Shown: positions 12,024 to 43,831 of the stretch, piece by piece | How positions within the stretch are numbered: position 1 is the first letter of the stretch | Layout: each line of letters begins with the position of its first letter | From: a phage | Direction: 5' to 3' (one strand) | Length of the DNA: 64,000 nt | Sequence record: PZ049338.1 | The notes under the pieces: generated by a model | The model's database searches: none | Told to the model about the DNA's origin: nothing | Seen by the model: the letters and a program-made list of their open reading frames with translations, nothing else | Position numbers and translations under genes: made by a program

Positions 12024-13256
12024 ATGGGCAAGAAAAGTACACCGAAGCAGACCACTACTTCAAAAACTGAGAATAATCCGTGGGCTCCGGCCCAAGACCA
12101 ACTCAAAGATATACTCTCTGAGGCTCAGAAACAATATGAAGCAACCGGTGGTCTCGATGGTAACTGGATTGATAAGAATTTCCCAGACTTAACACCAGAG
12201 ATGAAAGCATCTCTTGGTAATCTGGCATCTTCTGGTCAGTTAAATCAAGTAGCGGATAATATTAATAAGATTACCTCTAGTGCATCTACAAACGTAAATA
12301 ATGCCTCTAGTGCATTATCTGGAATGACTTCTGGTGGCATTACTGGTCAGCAGATTAATGATTTGGCTAGCTCATTATATGATAATGAACTTGTTGACAG
12401 TCAAGTTACAAGTCTCACTGATGATGCAATGTTAAACTACGACAAACAAGTTAATGCACTTAACCAAGCTGCTGGTGCAACTGGTAACATGGGCTCTTCT
12501 CGTGCTGGTGTTGCTCAAGGTGTTATGGCAGGTGAAACCAACAAAGCAATCGCTAAAGGTACAGCGGACATTACTAATGCCGCTCGTTCCTCAGCGTACA
12601 ACCAAGCACTTGGTACACTGCAAGGTAATCAACAGACTAATCTGTCTGCTTCTGGCGCTCTTGGTAGTCTCGGTATGAACCAAGGTCAACTTCAAGCTAG
12701 TAACTCTGATATCTATCAGAAGGTTCTCCAGAACGAAGCTACTGCTGCTAACGTGTGGCAATCTCAAGCACAAGGTAAAGCTGATAACGATTGGTTCAAC
12801 GCAACTGGTGCTGCTAATGGTGGCTGGGATAACCTGTCTAAATACTTGCAAATGGTTGGTGCCATTGGTGGTATGGGAGGTACTTCCAACTCTACCGTTA
12901 CATCTAAGACCTCAGGAAGCAGTGGTGGTATGTTCAACTCCATCCTTGGTGGTGTTTCTACCGGTGCCGGTTTGATTGGTGCTGGTGCTCAAGCTGGTTG
13001 GTGGTCTGACGCTGCTATGAAGAAGAACGTCAAGAAGACTGGCAAGACTAAGAAAGGTACTAACAAATATGAGTGGGAGTGGAACAAGGCAGGTGAGGAG
13101 AAGGGTATGAAGGGTAAGGCGTCTGGTGTACTTGCACAAGATGTTGCCAAGAAGAACCCTGAAGCTGTTAAGAAAACTCCAAGTGGCAAGCTGATGGTCG
13201 ATTATGATAAGACTGATGTTAAGCCTAAAAACTCTAAAGCTAAGAAGAAGAAATAA
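12024..13256 (+). CDS. Virion structural protein (410 aa), S/N/G-rich with Lys-rich C-terminus
   Basis: Good SD; low-complexity composition; followed by a terminator hairpin. Confidence 0.4.
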   Translation: MGKKSTPKQTTTSKTENNPWAPAQDQLKDILSEAQKQYEATGGLDGNWIDKNFPDLTPEMKASLGNLASSGQLNQVADNINKITSSASTNVNNASSALSGMTSGGITGQQINDLASSLYDNELVDSQVTSLTDDAMLNYDKQVNALNQAAGATGNMGSSRAGVAQGVMAGETNKAIAKGTADITNAARSSAYNQALGTLQGNQQTNLSASGALGSLGMNQGQLQASNSDIYQKVLQNEATAANVWQSQAQGKADNDWFNATGAANGGWDNLSKYLQMVGAIGGMGGTSNSTVTSKTSGSSGGMFNSILGGVSTGAGLIGAGAQAGWWSDAAMKKNVKKTGKTKKGTNKYEWEWNKAGEEKGMKGKASGVLAQDVAKKNPEAVKKTPSGKLMVDYDKTDVKPKNSKAKKKK

Positions 13257-26511: not shown

Positions 26512-26518
26512 TCTTAAA

Positions 26519-27806: not shown

Positions 27807-27994
27807 TAGTTCTTCTCGTCAAATTGCTTAAGGGCACCGACTAGAGCATCAGCTTTAAACTTAGCTGTTGGTAGAGAAGGTTCTTCAACCTCCCGAACAT
27901 TGGTAGTCTTGTTTGTGATGTTGTACCAGCGCAATCCTTCATCCACTGTTACAACATACTTGTCATTCTCATAAACAACATTATCCATCGTCAC
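27806..27994 (-). CDS. Hypothetical protein (62 aa)
   Basis: ORF between sigma factor and exonuclease genes. Confidence 0.3.
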   Translation of the reverse strand: MTMDNVVYENDKYVVTVDEGLRWYNITNKTTNVREVEEPSLPTAKFKADALVGALKQFDEKN

Positions 27995-27997
27995 TCC

Positions 27998-28567
27998 TTA
28001 ACTCTGGAAGTTTACTGATTCTCTGTCAATGTTAGCGACTAATTGACTTCGAATACGATGGAGACTGACGTAAATGTTATTTGAAGACATGCCATACTTA
28101 TTGGCAACATCTTTAGTCGTGAGGTTCTTCAGGTAAACATCGGTGAACAATTCACGTTCTGATTCCTTAAGAGTCTCAAAAGCTCTCTGAACAAACGAGG
28201 AAGCTTCATCGGCTAGTAACTCACGAACAGGGTCAGTTAACCCATTATCATGGCATTCAAATTCGAGGACATTATCGTACATCTCCGTATCAACTCTGTC
28301 GAACTCTCGGCGTACATAACCATAACGAACATTGTTCGCAATAGTACCTATAACACCGCCTAACTTATCCCACTGGATTCTGTCCCAATACTGCCAAATC
28401 CTTAGCAGAGTTTCTTGAGCCAAATCTTCAGCCAGATGGTAATCTTTTTCCATGTAGTAGAATTGTTTCTGGAGAGGTTTCCAGAACTCTTCGTACAACT
28501 CTTCAAAAGTATATGTTTCTCGTTTTGGAGTAGGGGCACTAATTCTCTTAGCCATCATACATTCCAT
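27998..28567 (-). CDS. Phage-encoded sigma-70 family (ECF-like) sigma factor
   Basis: Region-2-like DLAQETLLRIWQYW and region-4 HTH LTTKDVANKYGMSSNNIYVSLHRIRSQL. Confidence 0.7.
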   Translation of the reverse strand: MECMMAKRISAPTPKRETYTFEELYEEFWKPLQKQFYYMEKDYHLAEDLAQETLLRIWQYWDRIQWDKLGGVIGTIANNVRYGYVRREFDRVDTEMYDNVLEFECHDNGLTDPVRELLADEASSFVQRAFETLKESERELFTDVYLKNLTTKDVANKYGMSSNNIYVSLHRIRSQLVANIDRESVNFQS

Positions 28568-28575
28568 GTACTGAT

Positions 28576-28599
28576 GAAAGAAAACCCCTCCGAAGAGGG
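28576..28599 (-). terminator. UUCG-tetraloop hairpin plus U-tract immediately upstream of sigma gene (terminator/attenuator)
   Basis: On - strand CCCCTC-TTCG-GAGGGG followed by TTTTCTTTC, ends 9 nt before sigma ATG. Confidence 0.5.
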
Positions 28600-28796
28600 G
28601 CTAAGTTTCAAGCCGCACTTAAGGTAGCGAATCACCTTTACAAACAGCCTCTATCTGTTGCACACCGTTAGCATTAAGGTTCCGGGTTCTATATTATCGA
28701 GGATAAAGTATATGCTGATGGACATATAGGCCATAGGTTATCTCCCAATTAGCCATCACCTTGGGGTAACATGCCCTTGCCGCTGTTTGAATTTAA

Positions 28797-29570
28797 TTAG
28801 AACGGGCAATCGTCGTCAAAATCCAGACCTTCATCTGGTTTATTGGTCGGCTTATTGTTACCGTACTTCTGTTCTTCACGAGTAGTGGTATTCTTTGGCT
28901 TTTCACCATCACCACTGTCGGCAATTGGTTCTTTGCCTGCATACGGAATGTGTTGTGCATCTTTAGCTTCTGCAATCACATCACGCTGGAATTTGTAAAG
29001 CTTGGAGTATGCTTGCAGCATCTCAGGGGTATCAATGTAAGGGTTATATGCTACCAGTTCTGAACGTGCTTCACCAACTTTGGACTTGTTTCGAGAAGAA
29101 ACAGCACCAATGGAAGTCACTTTGTTACGCTTCACACCTTTCTTCGTGGTATAAGAACCAACACCGATTGAAACAACTTCATTCAGGCGTTCCATGAACC
29201 ACTCGAGATTACGAGGAACTTCGGTAATAGTTGGGTCAATTGCTTTACAGAGGTCGAATACACCACCACGTTTAGCACCGGGGAAGAGGTAGAAGTCTTT
29301 GAACTGACAGGAAGGGCGAGGGTCGATAGGCTTACCGACTTTATCTTCTTCACCTTCGTATGTGCGACCAGTTGCGTCAACGTCAATAAGTTCAAAAGCA
29401 ATGGTACACTTGAATGCGGGAGCTTTCGCTTCACCTTGCCAATCTGGTTGAGGCTGAACACCTAAGCCAACAAAGCGAACGATACGTGCGTCGAATACAT
29501 CATCTTCAATCGCGTCGTATACAGTGAAAGATTTTTTAGAAGTGGAAGTAGATGGAATAGCAGTAGTCAT
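28797..29570 (-). CDS. ssb: Single-stranded DNA-binding protein with acidic C-terminal tail
   Basis: C-terminus DFDDDCPF matches the SSB-Ct paradigm (E. coli DFDDDIPF); position in replication module. Confidence 0.65.
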   Translation of the reverse strand: MTTAIPSTSTSKKSFTVYDAIEDDVFDARIVRFVGLGVQPQPDWQGEAKAPAFKCTIAFELIDVDATGRTYEGEEDKVGKPIDPRPSCQFKDFYLFPGAKRGGVFDLCKAIDPTITEVPRNLEWFMERLNEVVSIGVGSYTTKKGVKRNKVTSIGAVSSRNKSKVGEARSELVAYNPYIDTPEMLQAYSKLYKFQRDVIAEAKDAQHIPYAGKEPIADSGDGEKPKNTTTREEQKYGNNKPTNKPDEGLDFDDDCPF

Positions 29571-29665
29571 TATTTAATATCCTTATTAATTAATCTCAAT
29601 GTTGAGAGAACTGTTTATATCTCTCGCTCAGTTGTATATAGATTAGTGTAAGATAACTGAAAATC

Positions 29666-30097
29666 TTACATACTTTCTTGCATTATTTGAGAGCGACTAA
29701 CACCATCAAAGTAACAAAAATCGCCCACAATATTGCTATTAATATGGTATACTTCATTGAGGTTCTCACCTGTACGCTTGTGATAGTGATGGCAGATAGC
29801 TTTGTGAGCACAAATCAACCGACTCATGAACGCATACACATGGCTCCTGCCGTATGTACGACCATCCACTGTAGATGATTTCGTATTCACAAACCTGTCA
29901 ACAGCGTCATACTCTATCACTGGTAACATTCTTAGTGCAACAAATAGTGCATTGGTTGATGAAGGGCGGGAATGTCCCGAGTTCGCCGCCCCGTATAACA
30001 CATCCTGCAACCAACCACTAAGTTCATGGAGTTCATCAAAGTTAGAAAACAGGGACTGAATACAATGATTATCTAAATGGACTGTAGGACGTGACAT
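29666..30097 (-). CDS. Hypothetical protein (143 aa), His/Cys-rich
   Basis: ORF in operon context. Confidence 0.35.
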   Translation of the reverse strand: MSRPTVHLDNHCIQSLFSNFDELHELSGWLQDVLYGAANSGHSRPSSTNALFVALRMLPVIEYDAVDRFVNTKSSTVDGRTYGRSHVYAFMSRLICAHKAICHHYHKRTGENLNEVYHINSNIVGDFCYFDGVSRSQIMQESM

Positions 30098-34835: not shown

Positions 34836-34938
34836 ATCTACCTCAACATTACTAGCCGTACACCTGACGAATCAGTTGGGAGTTAAGTCGGCATTCGTAG
34901 TTATCCTTGCCGCCTCCGAAGAGGCAGCGATGTAGGTC

Positions 34939-35444: not shown

Positions 35445-35468
35445 AAAAAAGGCCACCCGTAGGCAGCC
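35445..35468 (-). terminator. Rho-independent terminator
   Basis: On - strand GGCTGCC-TACG-GGTGGCC hairpin followed by TTTTTT. Confidence 0.45.
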
Positions 35469-35565
35469 TTGTGTTAACCTTCACCCCAGCCCGTATTAGA
35501 ATCCATCGAATTCATCATACGTCCCAGTTCTCTTCACCAGCAGTGTAACCAATTGCATTCATTCG

Positions 35566-43089: not shown

Positions 43090-43156
43090 GACTTAATCCT
43101 TTTCCATGTCATTAAGCTTGCTGCGGGTATTACTTAGTGCCTTAGGTTAGATAACA

Positions 43157-43831
43157 TTACAGAGTGTCATAGTAGTCTGCGCGATTATGCAGACACCAGT
43201 CACCCGACTCAACACGGTTACTGTCGCCTTGGTCTTCATCAATGTGATAAATCCAAGCCTTTGCGAAGGAACCATCATCCAGTTGGATTTCAACCTGCGT
43301 ACGGTTATAGAAACCATTCTCAGGGTCACAGGCACTGTACCCTTCCAGCATGTCGTATGCACCAGTCAGACCTTCCAGAGGTGCTTCAAATACATCAACA
43401 ACAACCTGCTTGCCAGACTTGTTAGCCTTAAGGTTCACGGAAGGGAAGTAGGAGCCACCGTAGCGATATAAATCGAACTGGTCTACAGTCACACCCTTAC
43501 TTACAAATTCACCGCCGCCACGAGCGTTTACGTGGAAATTCTGCATGTTGCGACGCAGAGAGCCATAAGTTGCGATGAATACTTTACCGTCTGAAGGAAT
43601 TACTAAGTTCTTTGACATTACTTGTCCTGTTTTAGGTTGTAGATAATATTTAACTTCGACAAATCGCCATGTGTTCTGGAGGTTCTCTGCCATTTCTTTT
43701 GCTTCTGGGTAAGTTAAGCCACAGCCAAGCTGATAACCTTCCTCACCCTTACTCATGCGACCAATCAGTAAATAACGAACTTCATGGTCACCTGTTAGTG
43801 GTTCTTTAATTGAGAGCTTCATCTTATACAC
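43157..43831 (-). CDS. GGCT/AIG2-like (gamma-glutamyl cyclotransferase fold) protein
   Basis: YGSLRR motif characteristic of AIG2/GGCT family. Confidence 0.45.
   Translation of the reverse strand: MYKMKLSIKEPLTGDHEVRYLLIGRMSKGEEGYQLGCGLTYPEAKEMAENLQNTWRFVEVKYYLQPKTGQVMSKNLVIPSDGKVFIATYGSLRRNMQNFHVNARGGGEFVSKGVTVDQFDLYRYGGSYFPSVNLKANKSGKQVVVDVFEAPLEGLTGAYDMLEGYSACDPENGFYNRTQVEIQLDDGSFAKAWIYHIDEDQGDSNRVESGDWCLHNRADYYDTL

Follow-up and report, generated by a model that had tools for sequence, protein, structure and literature searches.

The closest described counterpart of the locus considered here, a sigma factor gene preceded by a hairpin, a ToxI-like RNA repeat and a structured RNA in a 64,000-nucleotide (nt) stretch of phage DNA (sequence record PZ049338.1; the whole stretch is called the window), is the gp47 locus of Salmonella phage 7-11 (Lavysh et al. 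2022, PMC8948821). Purified 7-11 gp47 competes with sigma-70 for core RNA polymerase and steers the E. coli core enzyme to eight late promoters with the consensus GTAAtg-N16-aCTA, and the 7-11 promoter P48 has been validated in vivo and in vitro (PMC8948821). At the place that concerns us here, a 'potential regulatory hairpin' was reported in 7-11 and in phage GAP52, and the 7-11 hairpin is not called a terminator in that work (PMC8948821, Fig. 5C). Between genes 48 and 47 of 7-11, the same study also detected a 5' end by primer extension that followed late kinetics and had no promoter consensus in front of it; the authors considered processing, a reverse-transcriptase stop or mRNA stabilisation (PMC8948821). 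In the Kuravirus phiEco32, the ECF-like sigma factor gp36 is encoded in a syntenic replication and nucleotide-metabolism cluster and likewise redirects host RNA polymerase, to non-early genes; it differs in sharing ~15% identity with the 7-11 type, in being without region 4, in using a single-element promoter (tAATGTAtA) and in working with gp79, which is absent from 7-11 and GAP52 (PMC8948821).

The window resembles 7-11 in gene order, with a gene-48 homologue upstream of the sigma gene and a 62-amino-acid open reading frame (ORF) and an exonuclease gene downstream. It also has a CUUCGG-type hairpin with a T-tract at the equal position and a P48-type motif upstream of gene 48. It differs in that its ToxI-like repeat is a C9/G25/U29 variant and that an extra RNA of 147 nt is inserted.

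ToxI, with a repeat unit of 35-37 nt, is the repeated RNA antitoxin of the ToxIN type III toxin-antitoxin abortive-infection systems. In the native loci that we compared (p805-3, pECA1039, pPA21A, a Hafnia plasmid and E. coli IncX4), a promoter is followed by 4-13 ToxI repeats, a GC hairpin with a T-tract and, ~15-30 nt later, toxN. The same toxI-terminator-toxN layout has been described by Blower et al. (PMC3475682, Fig. 5A). A ToxI-like sequence without toxN, lying on the transcribed strand, is known from Pectobacterium phage phiTE (Blower et al. 2012, PMC3475682). This 'pseudo-ToxI' consists of 1.5 repeats, carries a GAC at positions 27-29 that abolishes binding of the pECA1039 ToxN, and had to be expanded before the phage could escape (PMC3475682).

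We consider it fairly probable that the window carries a gp47-type sigma gene behind an ancestral, leaky terminator, that this gene is expressed by read-through, and that the terminator adjoins a ToxI decoy and a structured RNA, which we call B. Of this account, domain content, orthology, conservation of the hairpin and homology to ToxI are shown by the analysis. The sigma gene and its hairpin are already in the literature for 7-11 and would add little alone; the new content lies in the putative ToxI-like decoy and the structured RNA, with the terminator as their 3' boundary.

A gp47-type sigma gene behind a conserved hairpin

The sigma gene occupies an open frame on the minus strand (27998..28567) that encodes 189 amino acids in its longest form. 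The initial annotation had read sigma-70 region-2 and region-4 signatures in this frame, and profile searches recovered both domains above their Pfam cut-offs: Sigma70_r2 (PF04542) with 26.3 bits against 24 at residues 30-86, and Sigma70_r4_2 (PF08281) with 29.1 bits against 25.7 at residues 126-176. In concordance with these matches, the NCBIfam model TIGR02937 (sigma70-ECF) covers the frame nearly end to end (64.3 bits; cut-off 42.9), and the match to phrog_1740, 'RNA polymerase sigma factor', has an E-value of 6e-37. No region 1 or region 3 Pfam match was obtained in the frame at E-values up to 1. The product is predicted to be a small two-domain protein of the ECF type (group 4) without regions 1.1 and 3.

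The predicted protein is identical to 7-11 gp47 at 148/181 positions (82%). It is the gp47 orthologue, and as such would reprogramme the host core RNA polymerase to late promoters of the GTAAtg-N16-aCTA type. Redirection of the host polymerase, as proposed in the initial annotation, is in itself not new, having been established experimentally for gp47 (PMC8948821). The accompanying statement that the 64 kb encode no single-subunit polymerase also holds: no RNA polymerase-like protein is present among the nine ORFs of at least 450 amino acids in the window, which correspond to a terminase, a portal, a structural protein, a DNA polymerase, a primase-helicase, an aminotransferase, an amidoligase and two proteins of unknown function.

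We take the ATG at 28555 as the true start, because the alignment of the relatives and all GenBank annotations compared begin at M-A-K-R. The first in-frame ATG (28567) is not conserved, and relatives carry a Shine-Dalgarno-like AGGGAT or AAGGAT overlapping that place. At the position of the GGAA motif of the window, the relatives have AGGGAT, AAGGAT or AGGGAG.

By megablast, the window shares ~97% identity with PKM.Lu.22.1 and PKM.Hi.22.6, which correspond to Lu221 and Hi226, two plasmid-dependent phages of the genus Moazamivirus (Grimontviridae) that infect Enterobacteria with conjugative plasmids (PMC10782986). Judged by this identity to Lu221 (~97%), the window appears to derive from a Moazamivirus-like phage.

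The hairpin before the sigma gene consists of an 8-bp stem with five G-C pairs and a UUCG loop (CUUCGG), followed by UUUUCUUUC, with a folding free energy of -13.4 kcal/mol. It had been placed 9 nt before the start codon in the initial annotation. The hairpin and its U-tract are real and lie on the minus strand (28602..28576), whereas the distance needs correction: the U-tract ends 8 nt before the ATG at 28567 and 20 nt before the conserved ATG at 28555. In a 20-kb scan, the hairpin is among the three best terminator-like sites, 29 such sites being found against 13.8 +/- 3.5 in shuffles.

To follow the hairpin among related phages, we took the interval that separates the sigma gene from the gene-48 homologue in eleven relatives and compared nine terminator lineages (the window, PKM.Hi.22.6, 7-11, GAP52/A24/ECO319P1, BUCT695, Privateer/CsaP_009, LAh_8 and APT65). 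All nine keep a hairpin with a GC-rich stem and a folding free energy between -10.6 and -13.4 kcal/mol, and the 9 nt behind it contain 6-7 T; the distance from the end of the hairpin to the conserved sigma start is 27-41 nt. Stem and loop sequences are unrelated between lineages. The UUCG loop occurs in only some of them, with TTTAT in Privateer, CTAGT in LAh_8 and CATGA in APT65, and the T-tract is kept in each of these. Conservation of a stem and U-tract while the sequence varies is the signature of an intrinsic terminator and not of tetraloop conservation. The Privateer record annotates its hairpin as 'terminator', and a chance hairpin is ruled out by the conservation across lineages. The element before the sigma gene therefore looks like an ordinary conserved intrinsic terminator, and one that is probably leaky.

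About ten hairpins with a C(UUCG)G loop are scattered over the window, at 13255, 16435 and 20607 on the plus strand and at 26515, 28602, 34928, 38406, 43882, 46927 and 49452 on the minus strand. Those at 13255, 20607, 28602 and 46927 are followed by a T-tract, and several, e.g. 34928, 38406 and 49452, are not. This distribution suggests that the hairpin of the sigma gene is generic punctuation and not a sigma-specific device.

The C(UUCG)G hairpins resemble a genome-wide punctuation motif, like the CUUCGG hairpins of T4. A separate hairpin of the window, AAGGCTGCCTACGGGTGGCCTTTTTTGTCTCT (35449-35470, minus), is near-identical in its arms and tail to the pre-sigma hairpin of APT65, AAGGCTGCCACATGATGGTGGCCTTTTTTGTCTCT, despite the distance between the two phages.

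A ToxI-like repeat and a structured RNA upstream of the hairpin

Directly 5' of the hairpin lies a single ToxI-like repeat, and behind it the structured RNA B (Table 1), both overlooked in the initial annotation. The repeat is identical at 25/25 nt, C9/G25 included, to the pseudo-ToxI of phiTE and to the ToxI arrays of pPA21A and a Hafnia plasmid, and at 33/37 nt (89%) to the repeats of E. coli and Salmonella toxIN plasmids. It is unique in the window, and shuffles give an expectation of 0 chance matches. A tblastn search with ToxN found no ToxN homologue in the window, which makes the element an orphan antitoxin-like repeat as in phiTE and not a toxin-antitoxin locus. No tandem array is present either: there is one core copy with a detached remnant of the 5' tail, against the 4-13 copies of native arrays. 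Unlike phiTE, the window, from an unrelated podophage, has one repeat with CUU at positions 27-29, and this repeat adjoins a terminator with a sigma gene behind it.

Around the junction of 5' tail and core, the sequence reads TTGAAATTCAGGTGATTT in 7-11 and GAAATCAAGGTGATT in PKM.Hi.22.6, and in the window it is divided into TTAAATTCA, then B, then AGGTGATT. The 7-11 intergenic sequence GAAATTCAGGTGATTTGCTACCTTAAGTGCAGCTAGAAA matches, at 39/39 nt, the repeats of mobilizable E. coli and Salmonella plasmids, 6.4 kb in size, that carry toxIN and encode ToxN, which indicates that hosts of these phages carry the cognate toxin. Between the cores of the window and 7-11 repeats there are three differences, U9C, A25G and A29U. 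U9C/A25G is a compensatory pair of the ToxI pseudoknot and experimentally neutral, A29C is likewise neutral, and mutation of the ToxN-contacting C27 and U28 abolishes activity (PMC3475682). The window repeat keeps C27, U28 and the C9-G25 pseudoknot pair. As for cleavage-type sites, the window has a 5' UAAAUUC parted from the core by B and a 3' GAAAC, and the 7-11 copy is flanked by GAAAU (5') and GAAAAU (3').

The order of ToxI repeat, terminator and next gene mirrors the native loci, including a start codon ~15-30 nt beyond the T-tract, except that toxN is replaced by the sigma gene. The hairpin, however, has no sequence relationship with the terminators of toxIN, and it would have stood here before the repeat. 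The terminator, but no ToxI-like sequence, occurs in relatives outside the Salmonella branch; this suggests that the terminator is ancestral and that the repeat was added upstream later. Joint capture of repeat and terminator was considered and rejected, since the toxIN terminators are not homologous to the phage hairpin. We also examined the sequence upstream of the GAP52/A24 hairpin as a candidate for another antitoxin, and it gave no meaningful plasmid match.

In the Salmonella-infecting branch the site 5' of the terminator would have acquired a ToxI repeat, and this repeat would act as a decoy, capturing the ToxN that ToxIN abortive-infection systems on plasmids release. A decoy for ToxN is the most likely role of the repeat, and to activity of the window copy itself against ToxN we would give about an even chance. 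The ToxIN systems whose ToxI repeats match are carried by plasmids, conjugative IncX4 plasmids among them. The finding places a natural ToxI mimic in a phage family for which the literature searched reports none: we found no mention of ToxI in 7-11-like phages there, with zero occurrences in PMC8948821, and an excerpt of a paper from 2017 still presents phiTE as follows: 'To date, phiTE remains the only phage...'. It also offers a possible reading of the late 5' end in the 48-47 region of 7-11. If that end arises by processing, the ToxI-like repeat with its cleavage-type flanks would be a candidate site.

ToxI-like repeats are not restricted to this locus. A 38-mer repeat query matched 113 phage records. 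Such repeats recur at strongly transcribed places in five or more phage groups that are unrelated to each other, and T4-like, T5-like, Kuravirus and rV5-like phages are among the carriers. The Kuravirus XT18 has one native-type repeat and, 14 nt further, a terminator hairpin, between terL and portal, and a T4-like contig has one ToxI-like repeat followed by a terminator-like hairpin; the repeat-then-terminator layout thus recurs independently in these two. In a 74-kb contig, two ToxI-like repeats lie directly behind a consensus sigma-70 promoter (TTGACA-N17-TATAAT). The repeats of the T5-like phage PWKp9S and of Acinetobacter phage Apostate lie inside tRNA clusters, and many T4-like phages have one just after rIII. 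The C9/G25 + CUW variant is common to the window and the T4-like phages.

T4 itself (NC_000866, 130541-130784, rIII to 30.9) has a degenerate ToxI-like sequence after rIII, GGAGATTCACTGCCTTAGTGTGAGCTAAATCG, whose substitutions relative to a T4-like copy (GATTCGC.../...GTGCGG) appear to compensate each other. A long conserved hairpin ('X') comes next, and T4 is without B. The rIII-30.9 gap of T4-like phages appears to be rich in non-coding RNA.

The pseudo-ToxI of phiTE, AGGTGATTCGCTACCTT(T)AAGTGCGGGACGAAAATCC, is identical to genuine arrays of 4-13 repeats beside ToxN on pPA21A, Hafnia and E. coli IncX4 plasmids, and one plasmid that shares this sequence comes from P. atrosepticum. By this comparison, the phiTE element may not be a degenerate mimic at all and may instead belong to a second ToxIN family as its cognate antitoxin.

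The structured RNA B separates the 5' tail of the repeat from its core. It is present in the window and in PKM.Lu.22.1 and absent from the 97%-identical PKM.Hi.22.6 and from 7-11. Copies that are 80-90% identical occur in 472 phage records, mostly T4-like myoviruses, and the copies examined follow rIII and in many cases stand close to, or immediately behind, a ToxI-like repeat. A fold derived from 14 distinct copies has multiple helices with 44 predicted pairs, and 97.4% of its cells are paired. Compensatory changes are found in 17/44 pairs, against 6.1 +/- 1.6 in shuffles (0/500) and 0-3 in slid controls. A 27-amino-acid ORF within B (28734..28651, with a GGGAGA Shine-Dalgarno sequence) was rejected as a gene: most of the T4-like copies lack its ATG, the reading frame is disrupted by an indel of 1 nt, and the base changes compensate one another within the RNA helices.

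Rfam scans gave no match for B and nothing credible for the T4-like locus, which makes B a covariation-supported RNA without an Rfam family, and ARAGORN found no tRNA or tmRNA in the window. B has no match in plasmids or E. coli genomes. Neither the B core nor the window-type ToxI variant (C9/G25 + CTW) has an exact match in 185,579 representative bacterial genomes, and both therefore look like phage lineages and not like recent captures.

The repeated adjacency of B to ToxI-like repeats suggests a related role or co-mobility. The phage of the window would have acquired B beside the repeat, and the arrangement suggests that an abundant non-coding RNA module made up of ToxI and B also has its 3' end at the terminator. 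Phages of the Lu221 type, with B, and of the Hi226 type, without it, form a natural pair that bears on the role of B.

A further possibility, which we put forward only tentatively and would sooner doubt than assume, is that B and the ToxI decoy together form one composite anti-defence RNA with the hairpin as their common 3' end. This RNA would be highly transcribed from the sigma-dependent P48-like promoter and would neutralise plasmid-borne ToxIN in the plasmid-carrying hosts on which these phages specialise. B would then represent an undescribed family, common to hundreds of T4-like phages in which it likewise adjoins ToxI-like repeats, that stabilises, presents or complements the decoy. Orphan single repeats beside terminators or tRNAs would be a widespread form of counter-defence, one that the literature searched does not report and that reaches well beyond the one laboratory example, phiTE.

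Table 1 Features of the sigma locus, in order along the window, with the evidence for each.
Feature	Position	Strand	Evidence
Predicted ECF-type sigma factor gene, 185 amino acids from the MAKR start	27998..28555	minus	Pfam, TIGR02937, phrog_1740, orthologue alignment
Shine-Dalgarno-like GGAA	28562..28565	minus	read from sequence, 6 nt before ATG 28555
Predicted intrinsic terminator: stem-loop AGCCCCTC-TTCG-GAGGGGTT (28602..28583) and U-tract TTTTCTTTC (28584..28576)	28576..28602	minus	fold and conservation
Single ToxI-like (pseudo-ToxI) repeat AGGTGATTCGCTACCTTAAGTGCGGCTTGAAAC, 33 nt	28605..28637	minus	ToxI homology; directly 5' of the hairpin
Structured RNA B, 147 nt, closing helix AAACAGC/GCUGUUU	28642..28788	minus	covariation; between ToxI 5' tail and repeat core
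AAATTC, left over from the junction between ToxI repeats and from the 5' tail (native GAA^AUUC)	28789..28794	minus	cut off from the core by B
Gene-48 homologue (7-11 gene 48 / phiEco32 gene 40), 257 amino acids, function unknown	28797..29570	minus	phrog_6599, E 9e-98; synteny in all relatives
Late-promoter motif GTAAGA-N16-ACTA, positional equivalent of 7-11 P48	29644..29669	minus	aligns with 7-11 GTAAGT-N16-ACTA upstream of gene 48

Sigma expression and alternative readings

Between the U-tract and the ATG at 28555 there are 20 nt, which hold only the GGAA motif. No late-type promoter motif (GTAAtg-N16-aCTA with at most one mismatch) lies within 28556-28800, and the nearest one is the P48-like motif upstream of the preceding gene, the gene-48 homologue. 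For these reasons we find it plausible that sigma is expressed by read-through of the terminator. The sole sigma-70-like site in the vicinity, TTGACG-N18-TAAATT (28819..28790), is weak and one of 49 such sites against 44 expected by chance, and we gave it no weight.

Under read-through, the sigma gene would be without a recognisable promoter of its own, and its mRNA would come from transcripts that pass the terminator. Early in infection these would start at far-upstream host-type promoters, as proposed for 7-11 (PMC8948821), and later at the sigma-dependent P48-like promoter. A leaky terminator would set a low ratio of sigma to gene-48 product and thereby damp the positive feedback loop, acting as fixed punctuation and not as a regulated switch; both the dependence on read-through and the efficiency of the terminator are inferred here. 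A comparable arrangement is found in the E. coli rpsU-dnaG-rpoD operon, in which a constitutive internal partial terminator lowers expression of the downstream sigma gene relative to the upstream gene. This is a bacterial housekeeping operon that is not homologous to the phage locus, and the analogy is one of mechanism only. If the decoy works, control of late genes, leakiness of the terminator and output of an anti-abortive-infection RNA would be linked in one 250-nt stretch.

Several points weigh against this combined account of terminator, read-through and decoy. The U-tract is interrupted (UUUUCUUUC), the late primer-extension end in the 7-11 intergenic region (PMC8948821) could mark an unrecognised promoter, and the terminator also occurs in relatives without a ToxI-like sequence, so that the repeat is not needed to account for the hairpin. 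The repeat of the window is single-copy with its 5' tail cut off by B, its 3' site is GAAAC and not the ToxN motif GAAAU, and it has U at position 29. Over-expression of one phiTE repeat gave no activity, and the wild-type phage is aborted (PMC3475682). T4 has its degenerate ToxI-like sequence and is nonetheless reported to have needed experimental evolution to overcome toxIN.

These observations about the repeat lend themselves to another explanation, in which neither the ToxI-like repeat nor B has an anti-defence role, both being inert, as passengers or as scars of recombination, and the hairpin is only the terminator of the gene-48 unit. The single copy, the damaged 5' tail and the imperfect 3' cleavage site would all fit, as would the presence of B in one sister phage and its absence from the other, the inactivity of the single phiTE repeat (PMC3475682) and the degenerate copy that T4 keeps without benefit against toxIN. 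Set against this, the repeat is kept on the transcribed strand in five phages (7-11, SeKF_80, PKM.Hi.22.6, PKM.Lu.22.1 and the window) with a core of ~90% identity, compensatory substitutions and intact ToxN-contact bases. ToxI-like repeats recur at highly transcribed sites in unrelated groups, and the structural covariation of B is strong. We regard inert passengers as possible and on the whole unlikely.

A second explanation concerns the hairpin itself, which could mainly be an element of RNA stability or processing: once the polycistronic transcript is processed, a very stable CUUCGG stem at the 5' end of the sigma mRNA would protect this mRNA and raise sigma output, as in the T4 gene 32 mRNA and as proposed by Lavysh et al. 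for 7-11. The late primer-extension end without an upstream promoter consensus is consistent with such a role, CUUCGG hairpins are known to stabilise RNA (PMC8948821, discussion), and the C(UUCG)G hairpins without a T-tract at 34928, 38406 and 49452 indicate that the phage uses such hairpins beyond termination. However, the T-tract is kept in every lineage, even where the loop is not UUCG, and the roles of terminator and stabiliser are not mutually exclusive. A mainly stabilising hairpin is in our view improbable.

Much the least probable reading is a regulated attenuator, in which a factor or an alternative RNA fold would switch between termination and read-through to time sigma synthesis: its place directly before a master regulator is suggestive, and an undefined antitermination is suspected for the long early transcripts of 7-11 (PMC8948821), but the minimum-free-energy fold of the whole intergenic RNA keeps the hairpin, no antiterminator or competing pairing appears in the minimum-free-energy or centroid fold, the sequence upstream of the hairpin is not conserved across genera in the relatives' intergenic regions, no credible Rfam match to a leader, riboswitch or other family occurs in 27900-29800, and the same type of hairpin stands at many other sites in the window.

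Attenuation or read-through had been offered together in the initial annotation. Dependence on read-through survives as plausible, no promoter motif lying in between, and regulated attenuation is unsupported in the absence of an antiterminator fold and of a conserved upstream sensor. Taken as a whole, what was observed there is confirmed and its interpretation is partly supported.

Further matches to the late-promoter consensus are found elsewhere in the window. A perfect GTAATG-N16-ACTA lies at 43160..43135 (minus), upstream of the primase-helicase gene, and matches of the same type with one mismatch occur at 2694, 8961, 20390, 31183, 38855 and 40756. Just downstream of the P48-like promoter, the 5' untranslated region of the gene-48 homologue contains a stem-loop (29604-29625, minus) whose stem is compensatory between genera, with GAGAGA/TCTCTC in the window, GAAGAG/CTCTTC in 7-11 and GAAGG/CCTTC in GAP52. 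This stem-loop could be a 5' stabiliser or a translational operator.

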